Below are positions 1-31,145 of a stretch of 59,500 bases of DNA, one piece after another; positions within the stretch are counted from its first letter, which is position 1, and every line of letters starts with the position of its first letter. The notes under the pieces are model-generated. The model had not been told where the DNA came from and ran no database searches. It saw only the letters and a program-made list of their open reading frames with translations. Source of the DNA: a virus. Where the stretch lies: UHGV virus genome UHGV-0209830; one strand, given 5' to 3'. The position numbers were made by a program, and so were the translations under genes.

Positions 1-3000
1 TGTGGGGTTGTCGTAGCCGGAGCTGAAGACGCATAGCCCGCCATAGCCTGGCTGATTGCTAGAGACGGCTCCTGCTGAGGGGTGTTCGGTGATGGCGCTG
101 CAGATGAAAAGCCCTCCATAGCCTGGCTGATTGCTAGAGCCTGCTCCTGCTGGGGGGTTTTCGGTGCTGGCGCTGCAGATGAAAAGCCCGCCATAGCCTG
201 GCTGATTGCTAGAGCCTGCTCCTGCTGTGAAGTTTTCGGAGTAGAAGGGGATACTTGATCTCCCGGAAGTAGATCAATGATTTCTGTATCGTGATTAACA
301 GTGCGTTTTTGTTGTATGGCTGTTGCGATATCAGCCACTTGAGAAGCTTTTTTAAATCCAAAAGATTTACCGGTTAAGCCGGATATCTTTTCAGTAAGAG
401 CCTGATCCATTCCTTTCGCTTTTTCGGAAAGCGAAGATATAGAACCAAACGAAGTAGCCAACGCAAAATCCTTTACCAGGTCCAGACTTGTTCCAGCAAG
501 GCTGGTAGCCGCGCCGCCAAATAAATTACTTGCACCACTGATTCCGCTTTCATTTATTGCGATTAACCGCTCAAGCAAACTCGATGGAGAGCCGGTATTA
601 ACATCAGCGTTCTCTGGATTAATCGGTTGTGGTTGGTTACCTGTTTTTTGTGGCTTTTTGACTGCCTGGGCATGTTGTGCAACCTCAATTGGCTGTTGTG
701 TTGCTGTCGGAACGGCATTCAAAACTGGTTGAGCTGGAGATTTTCCATTAGCATATTTTACCTTGCGACCAACACTATATTGCGAATCGCGGGCAATTAG
801 CTGACCACCATTTTCTTTCTGAATTTTATTAATCCGCGCCAATGTTTCGTCAGAGAATTGTCCCTCCCATCGACCAGTGTTTGTGTTAAATGCTCCAAGT
901 GCGTTCTTAATGAACTCATTATTAACTGCCGGATTTCCGCCTTCTTTCGTCGCAATTGCACGAACTAATTGCGTCATAACCTCTGGTTTGCTGACATCTA
1001 TTTTTTCATTAGGCGATACACCAAGATATTTACTGACGTTATCAATATATTGGTTAGTATTGTTCTCATTTGGCGGTGCCCATTTTGAAATGATGCTGGA
1101 TACCGTCTGTAACTTCTGATATCCCGCTGCGGCACTGGTGCCGTTGTAATAGCTGGAAACCTGGTTTGCCAGTGCCCTGATCCCTTCTTCAGGTGTGTTA
1201 AATCGCGCAAAACGTTGTTCACCTTTTGCATTTGGCGATTCCAGCGTCGCCCCTTCCTGGTTGGCAAAAACAAGATTGCCGAGATTATTATTTCGGTAAT
1301 TGCGGTTTTTAGCGTTGCTGCCGCCAATATTCAGATCCGCTGCAATGGTGTTGTTGGCAGGTGAACTAAATTCAGTTGGAGAAGTATACCCGTGCTCACC
1401 AACTCCATCCTCGCCATTACGCCCACCTTGTAATTGTTCACCTAGAGAATGAATCGCATCGACAGTTTTTTTGGTGCCGTCTTCAACAGCTTTTTTTACT
1501 TGTTTCGTGTTTTCGTCAGTGGATAAAAATGTATCCTTAAGGCTACCAAAAACAGATTTGGTGACATCTACCGCGCCGTTAACACCACGAGCAATATCTC
1601 CGGTATCAAAATTCTGAAGTTTTTCACCTGCTCTTTCAAATCCTAGCGCAGAAATTCCTTTCCCTATCAAGTTCGTTGCGCCCGACACCAAGCCCCCCAT
1701 ATCGAGCACATTAGCTGTTGCGTAAGCCGTTTTTTGCTGTTCGGATACAGCATCATCGTCACTTAATCCAAAGGCTGCCTTTTGCGCATCTGTATCAGTG
1801 TAACCATCTATAGCGTCATATCCCGCCATAGCCAGCGATCCGATGATAGGGATAGCTCTTGCAGCTGTAGAAGCAGCTGATTTAACACCTATTTTTGCAG
1901 CACTTTTGAGGGCTACGGATTCGGTTTTTTTCTTTGCAACAGTTTCACCTGTTTTAACTGTGGCCTCTTCGGCAACAACACCTGCTGGCTTAACTGCCTT
2001 TGCTGTGTTTTTTGTTTCTTTAGCAATACCCTTAGATGCGTCGCTTGTGGTGCTGATGTCTTTGGCTTTACTAACCTTTGTTTTAACAGTCTTTGCAGCT
2101 CCGGCACCAGCTCCAGCAGCAGCGGTTCCGGCAGCGGCTTTTTCACCAACAGAAAGGGCTTTTTTCCCCAGATTGCGACCTTTCCTTTTCGGTTTGTTCC
2201 GTTTATTTTTACCAGCCTGATCGCCAATATTGATTTTATTTCTTCTGCTTGCTCGATTTCTCCAGAGATCACTTAAGCCGAACTTATTCCCAGAAGATAC
2301 TGATTTGCGTAGCTTAACTACTTCGTCGGAGACATTTTCCAGACCATCAATTATTTTGTTGTCATTGGTCTGAAGAATTTTTGTTTGCTCTTCTACTGCT
2401 TGTGCTGATTTTGTCTCAACAGCATTATTAAATGCTGTTGCAGAGGTTGCTTTTTGAGTATTAACCACCGCCGGATAAGTGATAGCTGGAGATGTCTCTT
2501 TCGAAGGTGAAGCCTCACCTTTCCCCTTTTCTACCCATTCTTTAAGAGATTCTGCTTTACCTGTGATCTCTTTAGTAATGTCGTACATGCCGCGAGCAGC
2601 CATCCACAACGGACCACCAGCGCCAACACCTGCGGCATCTGTTAAAGACTCTTCACTGGAAGACTGATTGCCATCTACCCCTATAATGGAGCCTAATTTC
2701 CGGAGGAAGCCTTCTTGTAGTTTGGCGTCGGCCTTATGTGCTTTCTGCCATTCTTTTTTTCTGGCTATATCTTCGTTGTTTTTCTGGGATACAAAGCGTC
2801 CGTTACTATCCCGAAGCGGTCCTTTTTGGCTTTGGGGGGATTGTGGTTCAAGAGGAGCAGAATTAGCGGCTACTGGCACAGAACCTTTCAACTTTTGGGC
2901 TGACTGGCGTGATGACGCAAAATGAACGCGCTCTGATGTGTTGGTTGCAACAATGAGACGTTCTTCTCCGTTGTTGATCAGCGTCCTCCCTTTTTTCATC

Positions 3001-3335
3001 GGAAGGCGTTTTATATATGGGTTAGCTTGGGTGTTCTTGGCATCATCAGAGACATAGGGTTCGCTTGCTATGAGTCTACGGGATAGTCTTTGACTTACTT
3101 TACCTTGATTTTCACCAAGTTGAGTTATAGACCCTCTACCAGAGAGAATGGCGTCTTTGATCTCAGCAAGAGCGTTAAGTTCGTTTGTGCTCGCCCCCTG
3201 AATAGCGTCAATTATTGCGATACGGTCTTTATTCTCTTTCAAAATAACCTCTCTTTTGCCAGCGGCGATCAACGTTTCCCGGCTTGAGCTTTGTATTTTT
3301 CTTCCAGGGCTTTTGACATATGGAGTGCTCGCCAT
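1..3335 (-). CDS. Large virion protein, 3' end outside window (over 1100 aa in window); tape-measure/injection (Sit-like) candidate
   Basis: Hand translation of minus strand from ATG near 3335 runs without stop to position 1; absent from ORF track because no stop in window; in-frame TGA just upstream of the ATG; C-terminal 25-aa tandem repeats. Confidence 0.6.
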   Translation of the reverse strand, partial: MASTPYVKSPGRKIQSSSRETLIAAGKREVILKENKDRIAIIDAIQGASTNELNALAEIKDAILSGRGSITQLGENQGKVSQRLSRRLIASEPYVSDDAKNTQANPYIKRLPMKKGRTLINNGEERLIVATNTSERVHFASSRQSAQKLKGSVPVAANSAPLEPQSPQSQKGPLRDSNGRFVSQKNNEDIARKKEWQKAHKADAKLQEGFLRKLGSIIGVDGNQSSSEESLTDAAGVGAGGPLWMAARGMYDITKEITGKAESLKEWVEKGKGEASPSKETSPAITYPAVVNTQKATSATAFNNAVETKSAQAVEEQTKILQTNDNKIIDGLENVSDEVVKLRKSVSSGNKFGLSDLWRNRASRRNKINIGDQAGKNKRNKPKRKGRNLGKKALSVGEKAAAGTAAAGAGAGAAKTVKTKVSKAKDISTTSDASKGIAKETKNTAKAVKPAGVVAEEATVKTGETVAKKKTESVALKSAAKIGVKSAASTAARAIPIIGSLAMAGYDAIDGYTDTDAQKAAFGLSDDDAVSEQQKTAYATANVLDMGGLVSGATNLIGKGISALGFERAGEKLQNFDTGDIARGVNGAVDVTKSVFGSLKDTFLSTDENTKQVKKAVEDGTKKTVDAIHSLGEQLQGGRNGEDGVGEHGYTSPTEFSSPANNTIAADLNIGGSNAKNRNYRNNNLGNLVFANQEGATLESPNAKGEQRFARFNTPEEGIRALANQVSSYYNGTSAAAGYQKLQTVSSIISKWAPPNENNTNQYIDNVSKYLGVSPNEKIDVSKPEVMTQLVRAIATKEGGNPAVNNEFIKNALGAFNTNTGRWEGQFSDETLARINKIQKENGGQLIARDSQYSVGRKVKYANGKSPAQPVLNAVPTATQQPIEVAQHAQAVKKPQKTGNQPQPINPENADVNTGSPSSLLERLIAINESGISGASNLFGGAATSLAGTSLDLVKDFALATSFGSISSLSEKAKGMDQALTEKISGLTGKSFGFKKASQVADIATAIQQKRTVNHDTEIIDLLPGDQVSPSTPKTSQQEQALAISQAMAGFSSAAPAPKTPQQEQALAISQAMEGFSSAAPSPNTPQQEPSLAISQAMAGYASSAPATTTP
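25..245. repeat. Tandem 75-bp direct repeats (about 3 units, phase 41/116/191), in-frame within the large virion gene
   Basis: Unit ccatagcctggctgattgctagag...gcgctgcagatgaaaagccc repeated; encodes repeats like PKTPQQEQALAISQAMAGFSSAAPA on minus strand. Confidence 0.8.
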
Positions 3336-3389
3336 TGTGGCAATTGTTCAACGTCACTAACGGGCTGATATCCATACAGAGTCAGGTTG

Positions 3390-4211
3390 TTAATAATGGT
3401 TAGCCATCCATTCAGATCTAATTGATGGGATAAACTCTCTATTGAGAAAGGGGACGTACAGTGTGGTTGTCACATCTGCACCCTCCTTAGCGTTTTTGCA
3501 ATGTTGCGGAGGCAGGATCAGTCGGCTTGAGCCTCTCTCAATAGACATTTTCAGGCCGTGGCGTAGGTCTTTTTGCATAAGCTGTATGCGAGCCACAAGC
3601 GGGGTAAATTCGGTTTCAAGCGCCATGCTTTCAATGATGTCAAAGCGTCGGTTAGCGGCCTGCGTGAAGTCCTCCGGATCGTCTTCAAGCGCCGTGCATA
3701 AAGCGAGTTCAGCAATTCGCATCCGTGCTACGCCAGCACTGTATTCGGGAGTTTTCATATCAGGAAGTGACGCTCGCATTCGTTCAAGGAGTTCCGCGCC
3801 TTTCCCGGTTAATGGTTTAAGTATCCAGTCAGTTGGTACTCCATTTACTGGTACGTTGGTTTTCACGTAAGGAGGTACAGTGAGTATTTCTACTGTTTGG
3901 GCCAGGTCGCTCAGGTTAATATCTGCATGATGCGTATTACCGCAGTGACTGCACTCATAGGAGTAGGTCATTACTGCATCGGGGCGCGAATTAACAAATA
4001 TCCACCAAAGAGCAGTTCTGCGGTCCTGAACTGTCCAGTTAGCACTGTCGTTAATTTCACCATCCTGCATAGAGTTAAGGTACTCTGTAGTCGTTGCCTC
4101 ATCTTCTGCCGGGTTCAGGTCAGAATATTTCAGCGCATCCTTCACGGTAGGGGCGTGGAACTGAATTTCTGTCTCAGGATGGGAAGGCAATGGGAATTTT
4201 GGAATGTTCAA
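3390..4211 (-). CDS. Hypothetical protein (273 aa)
   Basis: ORF track; TTG start as listed; between replicon and large virion gene. Confidence 0.5.
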   Translation of the reverse strand: MNIPKFPLPSHPETEIQFHAPTVKDALKYSDLNPAEDEATTTEYLNSMQDGEINDSANWTVQDRRTALWWIFVNSRPDAVMTYSYECSHCGNTHHADINLSDLAQTVEILTVPPYVKTNVPVNGVPTDWILKPLTGKGAELLERMRASLPDMKTPEYSAGVARMRIAELALCTALEDDPEDFTQAANRRFDIIESMALETEFTPLVARIQLMQKDLRHGLKMSIERGSSRLILPPQHCKNAKEGADVTTTLYVPFLNREFIPSIRSEWMANHY

Positions 4212-4339
4212 TTATTCCTCCGAAAAGCAGGTATCTGTTCATTTTCCAGAGGATAGGGAGTGTGTGATTTGCGATGGGGATTGAATGAAGATCTTTGCCG
4301 GTCGAGAAGCGATTATTGAGGGTGATTTTTACACCTTAA

Positions 4340-4450
4340 GTGACGCTACTCACATATCCACAGAGTATTTTTATAAACCTTTTTCCATTTTTAATCCTTT
4401 TTAGATCCTTTTTAGGCGTCGCTGGAGCCAGTAGTGGCGCGGGCTGTAGA
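4340..4450. promoter_or_regulatory. AT-rich origin region with DnaA-box-like atatccaca upstream of iterons
   Basis: AT-rich run with ccttttta repeats and 8/9 match to TTATNCACA immediately upstream of iteron array. Confidence 0.4.
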
Positions 4451-4457
4451 GGAGGCT

Positions 4458-4575
4458 GGTGTAAGATTTGCCCTCAATTAAATACGATCGGTGTAAGATT
4501 TGCCCTCAGAAGGTGTAAGATTTGCCCTCAAAAGGTGTAGTAATTGCCCTCAAAGTGGTGTAAAAATTGCCCTCA
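4458..4575. repeat. Origin iterons: five 19-bp direct repeats ggtgtaagatttgccctca (and variants) at about 22-32 bp phasing
   Basis: Copies near 4458, 4490, 4512, 4534, 4557 directly upstream of rep gene. Confidence 0.85.
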
Positions 4576-4599
4576 CCATTTGAAGGATCACACAGGGTT

Positions 4600-5355
4600 A
4601 TGAACAGAGCGGAATTAACAGCAAAAGCCGTCAGCCTGATTGAGTCAGCGACACCTATTAGTCGTAGTCTGGCACAAGCCAATGAGATCACGGAGGCTGC
4701 TTATCACCTGACTCGCGACCAAAAGCGACTGTTGTTTATTGTGGTGGGAAGACTTCGCTATGCTTCTAAGGATGGCGTTCTTGGTTCAGGTGCCTGTGAG
4801 TTGACGGTCAACGAATATGCAGAGATGTATAATTTGCCCTCTGCTGAAGCCAGCAAGGATATTCGTAAGGCCATTTCAGGGCTTAGCGAGAAGAAAGTTA
4901 CGATATATAACCCTGATGAATCGACCGAATCAGAAGACAGTTATGAGTCTTATCCCTGGATGATTAAGGATGCCTATTCACCACGGCGCGGGACTTACAT
5001 TATTCATCTTAATCCATATCTCATGCCGTTTTTTACTCTGCTTGATAAGAGATTCACAAGGCTGAATTTTACCGAAGTATCTCGCCTTACAAATCCTTAT
5101 TCTATGCGGCTTTATGAGTCCTTATGCCAGTACAGGAAGGATGATGGAAGCGGCTTTGCCATACTTGGCGTCGAATGGATGCGGGAGCGTTATGGGTTAC
5201 CAAAAAGCTATCAGCGGTATGCCGAATTTAAGAGAAGTTTTTTAACGAAGGCTGTAGCAGAGATTGAAAAAAATACAAAAATGAAAATAGTCTTCTCAGA
5301 GGTGACGGAAGGCGGCAAAGTTACCAGGATAAAATTTACCTATCAGCAGTCTTAA
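4600..5355 (+). CDS. repE: Replication initiator, F RepE-like (iteron-binding Rep)
   Basis: Recalled F RepE motifs conserved: EAAY..RDQKR, SAEASKDIR, ESYPWMIK, NPYLMPFF, NPYSMRLYESLCQYRK, LPKSYQRY; track ORF starts 4567 but ATG MNRAEL at 4600 lies after last iteron. Confidence 0.85.
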   Translation: MNRAELTAKAVSLIESATPISRSLAQANEITEAAYHLTRDQKRLLFIVVGRLRYASKDGVLGSGACELTVNEYAEMYNLPSAEASKDIRKAISGLSEKKVTIYNPDESTESEDSYESYPWMIKDAYSPRRGTYIIHLNPYLMPFFTLLDKRFTRLNFTEVSRLTNPYSMRLYESLCQYRKDDGSGFAILGVEWMRERYGLPKSYQRYAEFKRSFLTKAVAEIEKNTKMKIVFSEVTEGGKVTRIKFTYQQS

Positions 5356-5647
5356 GGGCAATTTTTACACCCCTCTCAAGGTGTAGAATTTGCCCTTAAC
5401 GATCGGCAATTGAGGGTAATTTTTACATCTTAATTGCATGTATCTTGTTATTAGCAAGTTGTGTTTTTATATAACGTATTGATATGTAAGGATTATGTAA
5501 AAATCGCCCTCAACCAATATCGTGCGTATCGTGCATTCTTATTGCGCTTTTTTATTATCATTCACTGTGTTAACTGATTGATATTATTGAAATATGTAAA
5601 GAATGCCTTCATTGCTGATGGATTGATGATGTAAAAAATGCCCTCAA
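5353..5647. repeat. Downstream iteron-like repeats in both orientations (incC-like copy-control array)
   Basis: taagggcaatttttacacc, ggtgtagaatttgccctta, tgagggtaatttttacatc, atgtaaaaatcgccctca, gatgtaaaaaatgccctca interspersed with AT-rich DNA. Confidence 0.7.
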
Positions 5648-5736
5648 CATTGCGCTACCTTCCCTACCCGCTATCGTTGAGGTCGTGGGTGCTGACGGGA
5701 AATGAGCAACCCTCCAGCACACATAATTAAAGCTAT

Positions 5737-6444
5737 TCAGAATTTGATCACTCCACTCACAGCCCCCTTTAACGCGCTTGTAGCCATGCCAGCGGCACCG
5801 TTGACCAAAGCAGAAACACCTGAGCCTGCGGATGTGTATTTCTGGAAAGTGATTGGATATGACAAGAACTCTGACACCTGGTCTCGTGAGCGGGTGATTT
5901 CCCCAAGTTGAGTGGGGAATACGCGCATTTCCTCTTCCAGTTCTTTACCGCCATCCTGAGTTACCCGGTAGAGCCGGATCTTCATTAGATATTCAGGAGG
6001 AAGGTTTATTGTTCCGTCCGGGTTTGTCACGCGGGAACGACGCTCTTTGAACCAGTTCATGATCTTGCCGTCTTCGGTATCCCTTACGGTCATCGTGACT
6101 GGTCCGGCGGTGACGTAGGTTGGCTTGCTGAACTCTACGCTACCTATCACCTTGTTTTCTGTCTCGATATTTCCGCTGCTGTAGGTGATATCCTTCACGA
6201 ACATATCGAAACCGTTCAGACCGTCCACTTCAACCGTCCACTGCCATCCCTGGGCGTAACGAATACGCATAGCGGCAGCAACAATATTTTTCCCGTAGGC
6301 AATATCGCTGCTGTAGTTCCCACTTACCCCGCCGCCGGATATTGCTTTATCCAGAATGTCGCTAATGAGGTTGCTGGTGAATGATTTTGTGTTAAATGAC
6401 AGTGCGGTGGTCAACGTTCTGCCAACGCTGCTGAAAATACTCAC
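5737..6444 (-). CDS. Hypothetical tail-associated protein (235 aa)
   Basis: ORF track; co-oriented in tail gene block. Confidence 0.45.
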   Translation of the reverse strand: MSIFSSVGRTLTTALSFNTKSFTSNLISDILDKAISGGGVSGNYSSDIAYGKNIVAAAMRIRYAQGWQWTVEVDGLNGFDMFVKDITYSSGNIETENKVIGSVEFSKPTYVTAGPVTMTVRDTEDGKIMNWFKERRSRVTNPDGTINLPPEYLMKIRLYRVTQDGGKELEEEMRVFPTQLGEITRSRDQVSEFLSYPITFQKYTSAGSGVSALVNGAAGMATSALKGAVSGVIKF

Positions 6445-13399: not shown

Positions 13400-13858
13400 A
13401 TGAGTCACGTTAACCCCTCAAAAACACAATATCGCTTAATGCTGGCGATCGCGTCAGCTATACCAACCAGCCTGAATCCCCCGACAGGCTATCCCGCTGT
13501 TGTTGATGATTGTTTTCAGTATTACGGAGAAGACATCCTGAGCCAGTCAAAAGCGCTCAAGCAGTTATGTAAGGCAGGTATTCTTCACTGTATCGGAGAT
13601 CCGGACGATTTTGTTGTTATGCTGGCGGATCGTGACTCTTTTCTACTGTCCTGGAAAGCTGGTGCGCGCGAAGCACGTTTGGGGAATGGTATTGGTTACA
13701 TAGACTATAGCGATTGCCCGCTGGCATTTGCTGGTGGATATATGCATTGGCATGAGCGAAATAGGGGCCGTCAGCGTCAGTATCGTTTGAGTGACTTTAA
13801 CGTCTGTCACGGTTTCGAAGAAGCTGACAGCCAGGACATCTGGCTTCAGGAGCCTTGA
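13400..13858 (+). CDS. Hypothetical protein (152 aa)
   Basis: ORF track. Confidence 0.5.
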   Translation: MSHVNPSKTQYRLMLAIASAIPTSLNPPTGYPAVVDDCFQYYGEDILSQSKALKQLCKAGILHCIGDPDDFVVMLADRDSFLLSWKAGAREARLGNGIGYIDYSDCPLAFAGGYMHWHERNRGRQRQYRLSDFNVCHGFEEADSQDIWLQEP

Positions 13859-14154
13859 TCCCCCTTCCCTTCCCAAATCTCCCTGTTTTTTTGGTTATTC
13901 AGTGCGTTTCGTTGGTTGCATTCGTCGATCGTGCTGAATAACTGTTCAGCGTATGTCGGATACTTGTTTAACAGCACTGGCGTGTCTTCTGGCACTAAAC
14001 AAGGGGAGTAGTCAATCAGATTTGCCTGCGGCCTGCTGGTGGCTTCTACGGTAATTTTCACTGGCACGCTGGTTGATGGCTTTTGCCCGTTCCCGCTGCA
14101 TCCTGATAACGTCATCAGGCACACGTACATCGTTAATCCCAGCACGGCGTAACG
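13846..14154 (-). CDS. o-spanin (Rz1-like outer-membrane lipoprotein), overlapping the i-spanin gene
   Basis: Signal peptide with lipobox LSGC; starts inside and extends beyond the i-spanin ORF in another frame; track ORF 13846..14178 trimmed to internal Met. Confidence 0.6.
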   Translation of the reverse strand, partial: RYAVLGLTMYVCLMTLSGCSGNGQKPSTSVPVKITVEATSRPQANLIDYSPCLVPEDTPVLLNKYPTYAEQLFSTIDECNQRNALNNQKNREIWEGKGDQGS

Positions 14155-14470
14155 CATTTTCAAGACGAGTGATTTCATTCTGGCTTTCCTCCCGTTGTTT
14201 GATTAGGTTGGCATTCAGTTCTGCTGTTTTGCGTTGGTACTCCTTTTCCAGTGCTTTAATTCTTTCGTTTTCGGTCAGCATGGCTGAGCGAGCGTTCTCA
14301 CTTAACTGTAATGCTGTAGAAAGCGTGTTGTTCGTGCTTTCCAGTTGTGATTTTGAGTCTTCAAGCGATCGGACATACCTGATGTGTTCGATAACTGCCG
14401 TCGTTGTTCGGTAAATTCCAGAAATGGCTAAAAGAGCAATTACAATCAAAATTATCTTTTTCAAAACCAT
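14012..14470 (-). CDS. i-spanin (Rz-like)
   Basis: N-terminal TM helix, coiled-coil rich periplasmic part, overlapped by lipoprotein ORF. Confidence 0.65.
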   Translation of the reverse strand: MVLKKIILIVIALLAISGIYRTTTAVIEHIRYVRSLEDSKSQLESTNNTLSTALQLSENARSAMLTENERIKALEKEYQRKTAELNANLIKQREESQNEITRLENALRRAGINDVRVPDDVIRMQRERAKAINQRASENYRRSHQQAAGKSD

Positions 14471-14540
14471 CCTCTTCAGGTTTACTATTGGTGTTAAACA
14501 TGTACCAATTTACATCCTTTTGTGTTCCTAAGTGGTGTTG

Positions 14541-15344
14541 CTATTGTTCCTTTTTGGTGTTCTTTTGGAGCGCATCGATAACGCCTTGTGGCATGATTAA
14601 ACTGATTGCCGGACTCATTACTGCATCATCCAGTAGAGAACCAGTTAACGTGATGGCGACAGCGTTCTCTAAACCTTTGGTTGCCTGAGTGGTTGACGTT
14701 TTAATGCGACCTGTAAGGGCTACGACACTCTCACTTGCTGAGTTAATTTCGGAGAGTAAAACTTCGGCGGCTGTCACTGCTTCCCGTAGAGCATCAATTT
14801 CATCCTGAGTAATGACCGGAGCCTGAGCGCCCCCAGCACCACCCTGTCCACTATTGCTATCACCACCAGCACTTCCAGCAGCTTCTATTTTTGCGTTAAT
14901 GGCGTTCATGGCAGTTTTCAGAGCATCAAGTTTTAGCGCCGTCAATGCGTCCGTTAGAGATTGCGGAATGGAAACATTCCCCATCCCCTCAACAAGGGCG
15001 AAAGCAGGTATGGGGGCCAGCTCGTTACCTTTTACGTAGCATTCCCAGCCAATCTTCATCTGTAACAGCTCTGATGGCTTGGTGTATGGGGAAAGAGAAT
15101 CAGCCAGTAATGAAGACGCTTTGCTGGCCTCATTGAGCTGTTCAGAAAAGCCAAGCAATTGAGTAGTCCAGGCCGAAACAGAATCAGGATAGGTTTTATC
15201 GGCGTGAACTATTCCCTGTATGGCGCTGGCGAGTGATGAGGCTTTTACAGACGCTGCCCGGCTTATGGTTATAGATTCTGGTGTAGAGATACCGGCATCT
15301 GACAGAATTTTGAAGGCTTTAACTTCACCTATTGAATCAAGCAT
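14541..15344 (-). CDS. Hypothetical protein (about 267 aa)
   Basis: ORF track 14541..15443; likely start MLDSIGEV whose ATG overlaps the stop of the PAAR-like gene. Confidence 0.45.
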   Translation of the reverse strand: MLDSIGEVKAFKILSDAGISTPESITISRAASVKASSLASAIQGIVHADKTYPDSVSAWTTQLLGFSEQLNEASKASSLLADSLSPYTKPSELLQMKIGWECYVKGNELAPIPAFALVEGMGNVSIPQSLTDALTALKLDALKTAMNAINAKIEAAGSAGGDSNSGQGGAGGAQAPVITQDEIDALREAVTAAEVLLSEINSASESVVALTGRIKTSTTQATKGLENAVAITLTGSLLDDAVMSPAISLIMPQGVIDALQKNTKKEQ

Positions 15345-15628
15345 TATGCAACCTGAAAAATATCCTCGCCGTTGGCGATAACAGAACCACAAGAAAGCGG
15401 ATCGCCTACACAGACAACTCCCTTTCCACCTATCGAAAACCATACTCGCGTCGATACAGCTGCCCCTGGATGTGCACTGTTACCGTCAGTGTGACTGGGA
15501 AACATGGCACCATCTACAACAATTGGCTTACCGTTAACGGTGAACCAGGGAACAGTTTCAGCTACCAGTCGCGGCGGAAATCCTCCGTGACCAGAACAAA
15601 GGGTGTCGCTGGTGGCTATTGCGCTCAT
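15344..15628 (-). CDS. PAAR-like spike tip protein
   Basis: 94 aa with PAAR-type repeats (TVNGKPIVVDGA, CVGDPLSCGSVIANG). Confidence 0.55.
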   Translation of the reverse strand: MSAIATSDTLCSGHGGFPPRLVAETVPWFTVNGKPIVVDGAMFPSHTDGNSAHPGAAVSTRVWFSIGGKGVVCVGDPLSCGSVIANGEDIFQVA

Positions 15629-15699
15629 TCTTCACCTCCGGGTTATCCTCCTATTGTCATCACTTTGTTATTTCGTCATTCAAACTGAGAGTTAAATTT

Positions 15700-15800
15700 C
15701 GGAATATTTCTGTATTCTCACTTCATTCTCAAATAAATCTCACTGTCAGACCATAATTCATTGGGTGATTAAGGTATTCTCAAAATGAACTCAATAATCA
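15700..15800. repeat. parC-like centromere candidate: short attctca repeats upstream of parM
   Basis: attctca / atctcac copies at about 11-12 bp spacing directly upstream of parM. Confidence 0.35.
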
Positions 15801-15894
15801 CTCCTTTTTATCTCTTTTGGTGTGGATTTTTGGGTGCTTCTCTTTTAAAATTGCATTTTGGTTCTCAAATGTGTCTCAGAAGTGGAGCAAGAAG

Positions 15895-16851
15895 ATGCGC
15901 ATTTTTATCGATGATGGTTCAACCAATATCAAAATGCTGTGGGAGCACGACGGGGAAACTCGCACTCACATCAGCCCTAACAGCTTTAAGCGCGGATGGT
16001 CAGCAACATTTGGTGCTGGCAAGCCGTTTAACTATGTCATTGACGACGAAAAGTATTCGTATGATTTGATCTCGCCAGATGTTCTGCCGACGAATAACGT
16101 GGAATGGCAATACAGCCCGCTTAACGTCCTGGCTGTTCACCATGCCCTGCTGACAAGTGGCATTGAGCCGCAGGAAGTAGAAATTGTGGTCACGCTGCCT
16201 CTGGCGGAGTTTTACGACGACGACGCGCAATACAATCTCGATAACATCGAGCGCAAGAAAGCCAGTCTTATGCGCCCCGTCACGCTGAATAAAGGCAATG
16301 TGTTCACGATTAAGAAAGTTACGGTACGACCGGAGTCTATTCCGGCAGGAATTGGCCTGTGCGACAATCTGAACCCTGCCCATTCTGTTCTTATCGTCGA
16401 TTTGGGTGGAACTACCCTTGATGTTTCAATGGTCGCCGGGCAAATGACGGCAGTTTCCCGTGTTTTTGGCGATTCGAATCTTGGTGTATCACTGGTCACC
16501 AGGGAAGTAAGGCAAGCACTTGCAAGGGCCAATACCGAAACGTCAAATTACAATGTCGATCAGCTCATTATTAACCGCCACGATGAAGATTATCTGAACG
16601 ACAATATCAATGACCCATCAGCGATTGATGATGTGAAAAAGGCCATTGCCGCAAGCATTGACCGTTTGTGTACCCGCGTTCTTGATGTGATTGGCGACTT
16701 TAAAGGATATACGCATGTCATGGTGATCGGTGGTGGCGCACCGCTGGTGGCAGATGCAATTCGCGAGCAAGTTAATATTCGTGATGACCGTTTCTTCGTG
16801 GCGGATGACCCGCAACTTGCTCTTGTTCATGGCCTGAAAGCAATCGGTTAA
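15895..16851 (+). CDS. parM: ParM/StbA actin-like plasmid segregation ATPase
   Basis: Strong similarity to recalled R1 ParM (FIDDGSTNIK, HISPNSFK, ESIPAG, DLGGTTLD, GYTHVMVIGGGA); ATG at 15895 with RBS, track ORF over-extended upstream. Confidence 0.9.
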   Translation: MRIFIDDGSTNIKMLWEHDGETRTHISPNSFKRGWSATFGAGKPFNYVIDDEKYSYDLISPDVLPTNNVEWQYSPLNVLAVHHALLTSGIEPQEVEIVVTLPLAEFYDDDAQYNLDNIERKKASLMRPVTLNKGNVFTIKKVTVRPESIPAGIGLCDNLNPAHSVLIVDLGGTTLDVSMVAGQMTAVSRVFGDSNLGVSLVTREVRQALARANTETSNYNVDQLIINRHDEDYLNDNINDPSAIDDVKKAIAASIDRLCTRVLDVIGDFKGYTHVMVIGGGAPLVADAIREQVNIRDDRFFVADDPQLALVHGLKAIG

Positions 16852-16858
16852 CGAGGTA

Positions 16859-17203
16859 ATGTCCATGTCTCAGGAACGTAAGAAAGTGATGATTTATCTT
16901 CGCCCAGAGGCTTATGCCAATGAAAAGGCGGCGAGCGAGAAGATAAAAAAACATAGCGATATGGCAAGAACCGCATTGTTGGCAGGGCTTGCGCTGGGAG
17001 AAGTCGATAGCAGGCTTCCAGGATTACTGGCTTCCCTGCTGACCGAAGATAATAATCCGGAGCTGATCCGAAAAATGCTGGCATCCTTCCTGGAACTACC
17101 AGCTGCGGCTGAGGAGCGCCCTGCCTCCATTGAGCCAGCGAAGGAGCAAGTTGTTGCCAAAAGCGCGTCGGCGCGCAATCTGGCTGACTCTCTACCTGAT
17201 TGA
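16859..17203 (+). CDS. parR: ParR-like centromere-binding adaptor
   Basis: Small protein immediately after parM; RHH-like N-terminus; stop followed by terminator. Confidence 0.6.
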   Translation: MSMSQERKKVMIYLRPEAYANEKAASEKIKKHSDMARTALLAGLALGEVDSRLPGLLASLLTEDNNPELIRKMLASFLELPAAAEERPASIEPAKEQVVAKSASARNLADSLPD

Positions 17204-17221
17204 CAGAAGATGTGCTGGTTT

Positions 17222-17250
17222 AAGGCTGCAAATTGCAGCCTTTTTTATGC
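17222..17250 (+). terminator. Rho-independent terminator after parR
   Basis: ggctgcaaattgcagcc hairpin followed by tttttt. Confidence 0.7.
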
Positions 17251-17254
17251 CTTA

Positions 17255-17345
17255 ATGGTGCCTAATTGGTGTTAATCTGGCACCAGTTAGGTGCTGTTAT
17301 GGTGCAGTTTTGTATCTGGTTCCAATTTGGGGCTGATTTCGTGTT
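17255..17345. repeat. Centromere/operator-like repeat cluster upstream of parA (ggtgc, ggcacc, ggttccaatttgg, gtgttaaaca)
   Basis: Multiple short direct and inverted repeats between parR terminator and parA start. Confidence 0.4.
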
Positions 17346-17490
17346 AAACAGGATGCAATATAAGGTGTATTTGGTCTGATTGATGTTATACTTTGCCAAA
17401 CATTCATGACTCCATTATAGAGCCTGTCCCGCATCAAAAAGGCTCTTATCTGGAACCGTTTTGATACCAAAATCACACCGAGGAACGGAT

Positions 17491-18132
17491 ATGATTATAT
17501 TGGTAGCCAGCCAAAAAGGTGGCTGTGGCAAATCAACCACCAGCGTAAATATTTGTGCGGAGCTTGCCCGCGCAAATAAGGACGTAGTTCTACTTGATGC
17601 AGATAAGCAAGGAACATCTGCCCGTTGGGCATCGGACCGTAATGCGGCAGAGGTTTCTCCAGTAATTCATTGCGTCCAGAAGTTTGGGAATATTCGTGAA
17701 ACACTTCTTGATCTGGACAAGCGTTATGAATTTGTGGTTGTTGATACCGCTGGTCGTGATAGCAAAGAAATGCGCACCGGTATTACTGCGGCGGATGTTT
17801 TGCTTGTTCCATTCAGGCCATCTCAGCCAGATTTAGACACTCTGGCGCATTTTGTTGAAGTCTTTGAAGAGGCTTTGGATCTGATGCCTAATCCTAGCAT
17901 TAAGGCGTGCGCAGTCTTAACAATGGCCCCATCCAATCCGGTTGTGAATGAAGCCAATGAGGCCAAAGAGTACCTGGCTGAATATCCGCAACTGAAGTTG
18001 CTGAAAACCATCATTCGCGATCGCAAGGTTTACCGCGATTGTATGGCTGAAGGGAAGGGCGTTGTTGAGATGGACAACGGGAAAGCTAAAGGTGAAATCC
18101 AGATGTTGGTTAAGGAGTTATTAAGTGATTAA
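17491..18132 (+). CDS. parA: Small ParA-family partition ATPase (type Ib, ParF-like)
   Basis: Deviant Walker A KGGCGKST near N-terminus, about 213 aa from ATG at 17491 with RBS gaggaa. Confidence 0.85.
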   Translation: MIILVASQKGGCGKSTTSVNICAELARANKDVVLLDADKQGTSARWASDRNAAEVSPVIHCVQKFGNIRETLLDLDKRYEFVVVDTAGRDSKEMRTGITAADVLLVPFRPSQPDLDTLAHFVEVFEEALDLMPNPSIKACAVLTMAPSNPVVNEANEAKEYLAEYPQLKLLKTIIRDRKVYRDCMAEGKGVVEMDNGKAKGEIQMLVKELLSD

Positions 18133-18412
18133 GCCTCGTAAATCGGTAAAAGCCCCCGAAGTAAAAGACCTCGATCTTGAACGCCGAATTGAGGCTTTTG
18201 CCAGCAAAGCTGATTTGGTGCCGGGTGAGCAACCAGAAGACAACAAAGTGCTCGATAAGGACGCCCCACGTGATTTTAAATCCATTCGTGTTGGCTTCAA
18301 TGAATACGAGTACCAGGTACTTGATGCGTTAAGCAAAAAGCATAATCGCAGCAAATTGAATATGATCCGCCATGCTATCCTCATGTTAGCGGAGTCTGAG
18401 GAAGCAAAATAA
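18125..18412 (+). CDS. ParG-like small centromere-binding partner
   Basis: 95 aa, GTG start overlapping parA stop, helical C-terminal RHH-like region. Confidence 0.55.
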   Translation: MIKPRKSVKAPEVKDLDLERRIEAFASKADLVPGEQPEDNKVLDKDAPRDFKSIRVGFNEYEYQVLDALSKKHNRSKLNMIRHAILMLAESEEAK

Positions 18413-18680
18413 AGTCTTTCAGGGTGGTTTTAGAACTTAAAAAATCTTGAACCAAAGATGCACCAATACACTACTAATTTGGTGCACCTTTACATCCTTT
18501 TTGGTTCCAATTGTGTACCATTTGTCATTAATTTACTTATGCGCAAAAGTGGGCTTCATGAAAAAGCTCATTATTGAAATAACGATAGAAAGCAATTTCT
18601 AATCAACTAGTGGTTGTCAGCCTATTCGGCTTATAAGATCATACGCTGTTATACGTTTTTTACGCTTTGAGGAATCCACA

Positions 18681-20342
18681 ATGAGTGAGGCAGAAGCCCG
18701 CCCGACTAACTTTATTCGTCAGATCATCGATGAAGATCTGGCAAGTGGTAAGCACACCACAGTACATACCCGTTTCCCGCCGGAACCGAATGGCTATCTG
18801 CATATTGGTCATGCGAAATCTATCTGCCTGAACTTCGGGATCGCCCAGGACTATAAAGGCCAGTGCAACCTGCGTTTCGACGACACTAACCCGGTAAAAG
18901 AAGATATCGAGTACGTCGAGTCGATTAAAAACGACGTTGAATGGTTAGGTTTTCACTGGTCTGGTAACGTCCGTTACTCCTCCGATTATTTTGATCAGCT
19001 CCACGCCTATGCTGTTGAACTGATCAACAAAGGCCTGGCGTATGTTGACGAACTGACGCCGGAACAGATCCGCGAATACCGCGGCACCCTGACGCAGCCG
19101 GGTAAAAACAGCCCGTACCGCGATCGCAGCGTTGAAGAGAACCTGGCGCTGTTCGAAAAAATGCGTGCCGGTGGTTTTGAAGAAGGTAAAGCCTGCCTGC
19201 GTGCGAAAATCGACATGGCGTCGCCGTTTATCGTGATGCGCGATCCGGTGCTGTACCGCATTAAGTTTGCTGAACACCACCAGACTGGCAACAAGTGGTG
19301 CATCTACCCGATGTACGACTTCACCCACTGCATCAGCGATGCGCTGGAAGGTATTACGCACTCTCTGTGTACGCTTGAGTTCCAGGACAACCGTCGCCTG
19401 TACGACTGGGTGCTGGACAACATCACCATTCCTGTTCACCCGCGCCAGTACGAATTCTCGCGCCTGAATCTGGAATACACTGTGATGTCCAAGCGTAAGC
19501 TGAACCTGCTGGTGACCGACAAGCACGTTGAAGGCTGGGATGACCCGCGTATGCCGACCATTTCCGGTCTGCGTCGTCGTGGTTACACTGCGGCTTCTAT
19601 TCGTGAGTTCTGCAAACGCATCGGCGTGACCAAGCAGGACAACACCATTGAGATGGCGTCGCTGGAATCCTGCATCCGTGAAGATCTCAACGAAAACGCC
19701 CCGCGCGCAATGGCGGTTATCGATCCGGTGAAACTGGTTATCGAAAACTATCAGGGCGAAGGTGAAATGGTCACCATGCCGAACCATCCGAACAAACCGG
19801 AAATGGGTAGCCGCCAGGTGCCGTTTAGCGGTGAGATTTGGATCGATCGCGCCGATTTCCGCGAAGAAGCTAACAAGCAGTACAAACGTCTGGTGCTGGG
19901 TAAAGAAGTGCGTCTGCGTAATGCTTACGTCATTAAGGCAGAACGCGTCGAGAAAGATGCCGAAGGTAATATCACCACCATCTTCTGTACTTATGACGCC
20001 GACACCTTAAGCAAAGATCCGGCTGATGGTCGTAAAGTCAAAGGTGTTATTCACTGGGTGAGCGCGGCACATGCGCTGCCGGTTGAAATCCGTTTGTATG
20101 ACCGTCTGTTCAGCGTGCCTAACCCAGGTGCTGCGGATGATTTCCTGTCGGTGATTAACCCGGAATCGCTGGTGATCAAACAGGGCTTTGCTGAACCGTC
20201 GCTGAAAGATGCGGTTGCGGGTAAAGCATTCCAGTTTGAGCGTGAAGGTTATTTCTGCCTCGACAGCCGCCATTCCACGGCGGAAAAACCGGTATTTAAC
20301 CGCACCGTTGGGCTGCGTGATACCTGGGCGAAGTTAGGTTAA
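18681..20342 (+). CDS. glnS: Glutaminyl-tRNA synthetase
   Basis: Near-identical to recalled E. coli GlnRS; HIGH motif and VMSKR present; own leader and terminator. Confidence 0.97.
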
Positions 20343-30758: not shown

Positions 30759-31145
30759 ACACCTTTAACCACGGAGATGCCGTTCCCTGCACGATAGCGG
30801 CGGGGAACGGAATTCTCCATCAGGTCACGAATTACTCCCGCCTCATGTAGTTCCACTGTTTCCCAGTATCTGTTTGTCACCAATTACGCCCCGTTCCGCC
30901 AGGGGAAGGTATGAACGAGCTTCTGCTTCGGTTGCAGCCATGACGCAGATATACAGGTGTTTTTGGCAGGAATAGAAACGCCAGATAAATTCAGAATGAG
31001 TTGGGGTGGGGATAGTAGCGATATTGGCAGCCTCCTTTGACTAAGTTAAGGAGCTACCGCGTGAGGTTCCAATTCCGGCACCCGTTTTTCTAAGGTGCCG
31101 TAGAAATATACCCCACGATAAGGCCAGGGCGCAAAAGTCAGTATT

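Follow-up and report, generated by a model that had tools for sequence, protein, structure and literature searches.

A stretch of 59,500 nucleotides of the virus genome UHGV-0209830 (the window) carries two partition systems adjacent on one replicon, one of type II (ParM/ParR) and the other of type Ib (a small ParA with a putative ribbon-helix-helix, RHH, partner). We consider it quite probable that they are two independent machines in tandem, and that three arrays of short repeats, R1, R2 and R3, are the predicted centromere and operator sites of the RHH protein. The window is assigned to the D6-like phage-plasmids of the P1 family because the queried segment has 96.4% identity to Escherichia phage D6 and matches 123 plasmid records from E. 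coli, Shigella and Salmonella with up to 99.7% identity. The record of D6 already annotates all four par genes, as partition proteins or possible ones, and parM, stbB and parA of D6-like plasmids have been listed as one "partition system", with no analysis of cis sites (PMC6799933). The features of the locus are the following:

14487-14574, unstranded: R1, the distal array, about 8 units, between the stop of the upfB-like gene and the start of the Rz-like spanin gene
15714-15880, + strand: parC-like iterons, (A/G)TTCTCA and variants, at least 7 units in 11-bp steps, upstream of parM
15895-16851, + strand: parM, actin-like segregation ATPase, 318 amino acids (aa), Pfam StbA_N 1.6e-69 and ParM C-terminal domain 1.8e-55
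16865-17203, + strand: parR (stbB-type) adaptor, 112 aa, PF10784 3.1e-11
17222-17248, + strand: intrinsic terminator closing the parMR operon, 9-bp stem AAGGCTGCA-AAT-TGCAGCCTT, then TTTTTT
17244-17481, unstranded: R2, a long array upstream of parA, about 13-20 units, reaching the parA ribosome-binding site
17491-18132, + strand: small (type Ib) Walker ParA, 213 aa, Pfam AAA_31, MipZ, CbiA and ParA
18125-18412, + strand: putative centromere-binding partner, 95 aa, GTG start, 8-nt overlap with the parA stop
18445-18532, unstranded: R3, the downstream array, about 8 units, just downstream of the parA-RHH operon

Both operons are on the + strand, with a gap of 287 bp between them. An earlier note, made from the sequence alone, had described this succession: a ParM/ParR operon with attctca repeats upstream, a terminator, a small ParA with an RHH partner, and short elements which recur in three places. 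It holds in all these respects, as detailed below.

The recurrent short elements are units of the three arrays, which are phased at 11 bp and reach past the coordinates of the earlier note. The degenerate unit reads tttGGTGCcaa, and its GGTRCC-like core is pseudo-palindromic. In R1 the units are ATTGGTGTTAA, ACATGTACCAA, TTTACATCCTT, TTGTGTTCCTA, AGTGGTGTTGC, TATTGTTCCTT, TTTGGTGTTCT and TTTGGAGCGCA; in R3 they are TCTTGAACCAA, AGATGCACCAA, TACACTACTAA, TTTGGTGCACC, TTTACATCCTT, TTTGGTTCCAA, TTGTGTACCAT and so on. R2 is made of three sub-arrays in phase (17254-17308, 17315-17345 and 17416-17481) and spans a conserved promoter-like element, TTGATGTTATACT, in positions 17380-17392. R1 lies 2.9 kb upstream, beyond two phage genes and the entire ParMR operon: it overlaps the final codons of upfB and is directly upstream of the spanin start codon.

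Several words are common to different arrays. GTGTTAAAC is found at 14491 and 17341 and TTTACATCC at 14509 and 18489, nowhere else in the window; the exact 13-mer TTTACATCCTTTT is common to R1 and R3 and otherwise absent. TTGGTG is present at 14488, 14554, 17266 and 18479, and on the opposite strand at 18461. The number of shared 9-mers exceeds the mean of 1000 dinucleotide shuffles for each pair of arrays: 8 versus 0.23 for R1-R3 (P<0.001), 5 versus 0.24 for R1-R2 (P=0.002) and 3 versus 0.29 for R2-R3 (P=0.02). GGTTCCAAT is found at 17318 and 18503 and also in two unrelated sites (31065 and 42058), which we have rejected as arrays: there is no phased array in them and one is within a coding sequence. 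In positions 31065-31105 there are three good cores (GGTTCC, GGCACC and GGTGCC) within a coding sequence, out of the 11-bp phase and unflagged by the array scan; this cluster is probably due to chance.

In order to avoid circularity, the weight matrix used for the array scan was trained on a homologue from Aeromonas and not on the window: it is derived from 11 units upstream of the ParA-RHH operon on a plasmid of Aeromonas salmonicida (L010), which has no ParMR. The top four six-unit phased arrays in the whole window are at 17244 (score 38.6), 17406 (28.1), 18457 (24.2) and 14499 (21.1). In block-shuffled windows the array-score maxima have a mean of 20.2 and a standard deviation of 2.6, the highest being 28.8. 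Spacings between matrix hits inside the arrays are only 10-12, 21-23, 32-34 and 43-44 bp. The share of pair spacings at multiples of 11 bp is 0.36 inside the arrays versus 0.097 outside, where there is no periodicity.

The arrays are also found in the D6-like relatives. In all ten of them the top arrays are again R2 (twice), R3 and R1, with R1 within the top five everywhere. R1 scores 28.8-34.5 and R3 38-41 in the most diverged relatives (L004, L013 and L014 for R1), and R1 is retained in 121 plasmid records. The sequence between the cores diverges among relatives, whereas the cores and their phase persist: in R1 the invariant columns are 21 of 42 in the cores and 6 of 33 in the spacers (Fisher P=0.007). 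In L002-L005 R2 is barely alignable, yet its phased cores are kept. In L011 there is an exact 22-bp tandem duplication, i.e. two units, in R1. Throughout the 91-kb nearest plasmid no further array rises above background with the Aeromonas-trained matrix, and the equivalent upfB-Rz spacer of P1 has no such array.

The assignment of the arrays to a protein matters, because ParR, too, belongs to the RHH proteins and has 11-bp iterons. Homologous ParA-RHH operons in Aeromonas, Arsenophonus and an enterobacterial plasmid all have GGTACC-type units around the operon, and no ParMR is found near the ParA-RHH operons of L008, L009 and L010. ParR was considered as the binder of the GGTRCC arrays and rejected, since arrays of the same type flank ParA-RHH operons on plasmids without ParMR. 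We infer that all three sets of arrays belong to the type Ib ParA/RHH pair.

A wider scan, with one genome per species and an alignment of 14 RHH homologues as the query, gave 24 further RHH loci with arrays of the same type in gammaproteobacteria, including Rahnella, Serratia, Chimaeribacter, Kushneria, Hahella, Kangiella, Methylococcales and Pseudomonas. A Walker-A ParA gene directly precedes the RHH gene in 21 of these 24 loci. The phased arrays that score best are immediately upstream and/or downstream of the ParA-RHH pair, and at least 8 of the loci have further strong arrays at a distance of 0.3-2.2 kb. A distant array like R1 therefore belongs to the habits of the family and is no oddity of the window.

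The small ParA has the Walker A motif KGGCGKS near its N-terminus and is without an N-terminal DNA-binding extension. It matches the ParF structure 4dzz (E 3e-18) and the NCBIfam model NF041546 (E 2e-46), the latter with 158 bits, below the curated cutoff of 180 bits. Its ratio of nonsynonymous to synonymous substitutions (dN/dS) is 0.03.

Its 95-aa partner has a basic N-terminal tail (MIKPRK), a helix at residues 16-29 and an RHH-like C-terminal domain, with a strand at about 52-58 and helices at 60-73 and 77-94. Residues 53-94 match an Arc-like repressor in PHROG (E 2.4e-4). A profile search of solved structures gave CopG and HP0222 (E about 0.1), which align in register with the strand and the two helices. 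With an exhaustive profile search there are 124 homologues, 55-130 aa long; among 72 aligned homologues, 22 match the Pfam family NikA-like and 19 match RHH_1, while some match RHH_7, TraY and TacA. The strand KSIRV.F is invariant among the D6-like variants; this putative DNA-contacting strand fits the unchanged core motif of the arrays. Since direct family and structure assignment gave little, the RHH call leans on the evidence from homologues: that the partner of the small ParA is an RHH protein is supported but not proven, as the individual tests are not strong but agree with one another. The comparison as a whole shows a sizeable uncharacterised family of putative RHH proteins to which it belongs, with 124 representatives, a recognisable site grammar and a recurrent layout with several arrays.

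Several observations weigh against this interpretation. The direct scores of the 95-aa protein as an RHH protein are weak: a Pfam scan of the window protein gave no match, phmmer against solved structures gave none either, with ParG not matched, and the only match in NCBIfam is RelB-like with E 0.097. The AlphaFold2 monomer has a disordered basic tail, the helix 16-29 and a two-helix C-terminal domain, with a low mean confidence (pLDDT 59); with Foldseek all matches have E>1, although the short ones are nonetheless RHH proteins. The Aeromonas matrix is derived from just 11 units. R1 has a score of 21.1 in the window, about the mean of the shuffled maxima, so that its support comes from the relatives and from its conservation. 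Part of this conservation could stem in turn from its overlap with the C-terminus of upfB and the ribosome-binding region of the spanin gene.

The type II system is of a well-known kind. ParM matches the structures of ParM from plasmid R1 (4a62) over its full length with E 4e-111. parR is encoded directly 3' of parM; we have placed its start 8 nt past GAGG, following the annotation in relatives, and the protein matches the structure of pB171 ParR (2jd3) with E 4e-7. The dN/dS is 0.02-0.06 for parM and 0.06-0.18 for parR. Upstream of parM the iterons come in pairs and triplets (15714, 15725, 15736; 15776, 15787; 15861, 15872): ATTCTCA is present at 15714, 15725 and 15776, and variant copies at 15736, 15787, 15861 and 15872. 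Between the iterons is a conserved promoter-like block, TGTGGATT...TTTTAAAAT, at about 15822-15856. The TCTCA cores are kept across an alignment of seven relatives, in which L002 and L005 differ by exact 11-bp indels in copy number. The terminator, with its hairpin at 17222-17242, is unchanged in all seven, despite its divergent flanks. We predict that the TTCTCA iterons are the natural parC of ParMR.

We also considered a GGTGT/GGGTGC pair upstream of parM, at 15819-15836, as a cross-regulatory RHH operator of the pB171 type. It was rejected because it is unconserved in L002, L004 and L005 and below the threshold for matrix hits in arrays. On the minus strand there is a sigma-70-like site, TTGAGA-18-AATATT, at 15703-15732, which faces leftward to upfC. 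Since its position coincides in part with the ParR iterons, the divergent upfC-upfB-spanin operon might be under repression by ParR as well.

Taken together, the region can be explained as the plasmid-state segregation locus of a D6-like phage-plasmid. In the first system (type II, ParMRC), closed by its terminator, the 11-bp TTCTCA iterons that surround the parM promoter would be the binding sites of ParR, and ParM filaments would push the ParR-bound plasmid copies apart. In the second one (type Ib) the small Walker ParA is translationally coupled to the RHH protein, whose dimers would coat the arrays, in which degenerate GGTRCC-like cores follow each other at intervals of a helical turn (11 bp). 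R2, over the promoter-like element of parA, would be both operator and centromere. Once coated with the protein, the arrays would stimulate ParA-ATP bound to the nucleoid and would follow it, like those of par2 of pB171, ParFG of TP228 and delta/omega of pSM19035. From the sequence we infer that the RHH protein binds the arrays and that each of them is a working centromere or operator; R1 may be an extra centromere, an operator or a pairing partner.

Three neighbouring genes enter the discussion of the alternatives:

13846-14178, - strand: lipoprotein, Rz1-like o-spanin, PHROG Rz-like spanin; overlaps the i-spanin gene
14012-14470, - strand: Rz-like i-spanin, PHROG Rz-like spanin (E 2e-15 and 2e-5 for the two spanin genes)
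18681-20342, + strand: glnS, a cargo gene which adjoins the partition machinery and is no part of it

The arrays could be mainly operators: an omega-like RHH protein would repress parA, the Rz/Rz1 spanins and perhaps glnS, while ParMRC would be chiefly responsible for segregation. The positions of the arrays agree with this idea, as R2 overlaps the promoter-like element upstream of parA, R1 is directly upstream of the spanin start codon and R3 is upstream of glnS. In the homologous loci the extra arrays are just upstream of toxin-antitoxin, methylase and other cassettes, and the omega arrays of pSM19035 overlap the promoters of copS, delta and omega (PMC3074150). However, a consensus scan for sigma-70-like promoters found none within R1 or R3. 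In relatives without glnS the R3-type arrays do not appear to be operators, because only a terminator and a convergent gene follow them. Furthermore, the roles of operator and centromere coincide in the precedents (PMC3130281, PMC3074150). We consider this explanation doubtful.

It is also possible, but unlikely, that only R2 and R3 are real cis sites of the type Ib system, like parC1 and parC2 of pB171, R1 being a non-functional relic or a chance cluster of words. The score of R1 at the level of shuffled maxima, its distance, past two phage genes and the ParMR operon, and its partly coding nature would agree with this possibility. On the other hand it is kept in 121 plasmid records, its scores are higher in diverged relatives, in which the spacers have changed and the cores have not, it has undergone a duplication of two units in L011 and it has counterparts in the distal arrays of the homologous loci.

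In some of these loci, on GTDB contigs (L022, L025, L027, L030, L037 and L039), cargo cassettes have strong extra arrays on their flanks. These cassettes are a C5 DNA methylase with an open reading frame, a GGDEF protein, a PFIN fertility-inhibition protein, and toxin-antitoxin pairs of MazEF-like and VapBC-like type. This bracketing suggests a wider regulatory or organising role, similar to that of omega, for the adaptor family. A more speculative proposal is that RHH arrays are routinely scattered so as to bracket cassettes, which in the window are ParMRC with two phage tail genes, the spanin genes being just beyond R1, and in other loci toxin-antitoxin, restriction-modification and other cargo. 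The protein, which would coat the arrays and perhaps pair them, may then loop the locus, couple both partition machines and tie the expression of adjacent genes, lysis genes of the prophage among them, to the plasmid state, in the way of omega. As a whole we regard this proposal as rather improbable.

Returning to the two systems, both are intact and under strong purifying selection: each of the four par genes is intact in all 11 sequences compared, and dN/dS ranges over 0.02-0.18 with dS as high as about 0.9. The earlier note had named an inactive operon, through frameshifts or the absence of a centromere, as the finding that would speak against two systems, and had proposed a comparison of relatives for each operon. 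Such an inactive operon is not present, since the genes are intact in every relative and selected, and the cis sites of both systems are conserved, varying by whole units only. Paired systems are redundant on the Shigella plasmid pINV, where single deletions have little effect (PMC6519299), but with genes and sites in this state it is very unlikely that one of the two is a decaying, redundant remnant. The histories of the two operons differ. In L002 and L003 the first one, par1, is almost identical to that of the window (dS 0.05-0.13), while par2 of the same plasmids has dS of at least 0.9. This contrast implies that an exchange took place between them, around the terminator of invariant sequence at 17222-17248; par1 and par2 recombine independently.

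glnS has been discussed as a moron (PMC6799933). It is absent in L004, L005, L006, L012 and L013, the left breakpoint being the stop codon of the RHH gene, and this variable presence in D6-like plasmids contradicts the statement in the same paper that all D6-like genomes have glnS. In the relatives without it the RHH gene is followed by an array of the same type but of different sequence (scores 27-41), and then by a terminator. These relatives have in that place either other sequence of about 1 kb or the dam/dmt gene straight after a terminator. As the phased array persists without glnS, R3 should be a par site and glnS an independent cargo. R1, for its part, lies within a phage operon that is conserved, in its upfB-Rz spacer, and not at the edge of a module. 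The arrays would be cognate RHH sites rather than junction scars. Centromeres or operators, on one hand, and junctions of an acquired module that includes glnS, on the other, had both been offered in the earlier note; the former is the best reading. It is hardly credible that the short elements are recombination scars or junctions left by the acquisition of a glnS module: glnS is variable, its left exchange point makes R3 travel with it in some lineages, the exact 13-mer TTTACATCCTTTT joins only R1 and R3 and the different divergence of par1 and par2 points to a mosaic region, but an array with the same motif and phase occupies that position in relatives without glnS, R1 is in an operon spacer whose gene order is kept in P1, homologous operons of unrelated hosts have such arrays beside them and no glnS, and neither an 11-bp phase nor conservation of cores over spacers is expected for scars.

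The two genes to the left of R1, labelled as hypothetical, are the overlapping Rz-like/Rz1-like spanin pair. Their position matches that of ppfA and mlp in P1, and one record of P1 annotates these as Rz and Rz1. In P1 the gene order is dmt-hrdC-uhr, upfC-upfB-Rz-Rz1-upfA and repA-parA-parB, followed by gene 23; the window has upfC-upfB-Rz-Rz1 in the same order. An Rfam scan of positions 13500-19000 gave no match.

The design of the locus is ordinary, with one modest twist, the third and distant array. The gene content was known, being annotated in D6; the site grammar, the layout with three arrays and their recurrence in the family seem to be undescribed in the literature covered, which does not include the D6 genome paper. 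As the 123 plasmid records and surveillance data show, D6-like phage-plasmids occur widely among E. coli, Shigella and Salmonella, and their inheritance determinants have so far been named by homology alone. The ParR iterons and the three arrays of the type Ib adaptor offer concrete targets for work on stability, incompatibility and curing. The conceptual gain over the paradigms of pB171 and pSM19035 is small and incremental, unless the distal array links partition with the control of phage genes.

We finally compare the locus with known systems. Phage P1 shares with it the purpose, stable inheritance of a P1-family plasmid prophage, and the flanking genes upfC, upfB, Rz/Rz1, gene 23, hrdC and dmt. 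The partition genes are different: P1 has a type Ia system (ParA/ParB/parS) with a large ParA (398 aa) and ParB (333 aa), a pair which the earlier note had correctly named; it adjoins repA, across upfB-Rz. In the D6-like elements both genes are missing from that place, and ParMR and the small ParA/RHH pair lie between upfC and dmt. Two systems also coexist in an unrelated plasmid. L008 (CP045667.1, plasmid of Enterobacteriaceae bacterium Kacie_13), in positions 1-5890, has a large type Ia ParA/ParB and a small ParA/RHH pair of the present family, on opposite sides of a RepB replicon with ATCACGTT iterons.

The ParMRC system of plasmid R1 has a closely related ParM and 11-bp iterons around the promoter upstream of parM; it differs in the sequence and number of iterons, and its ParR is related only distantly (PF10784 E 3e-11). 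In the ParF/ParG/parH system of TP228, ParF is the closest solved relative of the window ParA. Its parH boxes are ACTC tetramers in 8-bp steps, all upstream, which differ from our arrays, and ParG has no sequence match to the 95-aa protein.

For type Ib systems there are precedents of two or more flanking arrays (PMC7602700, PMC3074150, PMC3130281): they are found on both sides of the operon in pB171, pSM19035 and pESBL (PMC7602700). The pESBL-type layout corresponds to that of L007 (NZ_LT985256.1, an IncI-gamma/K1 plasmid), with a ParA 45% identical to that of the window, an unrelated partner of 100 aa and long arrays of the octamer CTTGTTAT on both sides of the ParA operon (2330-2500 and 3427-3570). 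The delta/omega system of pSM19035 also has a small Walker ATPase and an RHH protein with an unstructured N-terminal tail. Its three separate repeat arrays are centromeres which overlap the copS, delta and omega promoters (PMC3074150); they resemble the three arrays of the window and the arrays which bracket cassettes in homologous loci. The window has three dispersed arrays, of which R2 overlaps a promoter-like element, while the scan found none in R1 and R3. Omega recognises contiguous 7-bp heptads (WATCACW), whereas the cores in the window are 11 bp apart; pSM19035 is a plasmid of Firmicutes and the window an enterobacterial phage-plasmid.

The double par locus of pB171 is similar in several respects. 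It has type II and type Ib systems side by side, a related ParR, a ParA which in the pB171-type locus is 43% identical to that of the window, a small RHH adaptor of about 91-95 aa (which starts with MVKK in pB171 and MIKPRK in the window) and repeat arrays upstream and downstream of parAB. For this comparison we used L018, whose ParR is identical to the 2jd3 sequence. In pB171 the two operons are divergent around a shared central parC1, and the central cis region is bound by both adaptors, with regulatory cross-talk. In the window the operons are co-oriented, with a terminator between them and separate cis sites. The CopG-family ParB of pB171 has no detectable similarity to the 95-aa protein (BLASTP E 2.3; hhalign probability 1%), the repeats of L018 are different hexamers instead of GGTRCC cores phased at 11 bp, and a third array 2.9 kb away, beyond ParMR, is a feature of the window. 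The window locus would thus work like the double locus of pB171, as a distinct arrangement of the same two kinds of machine.

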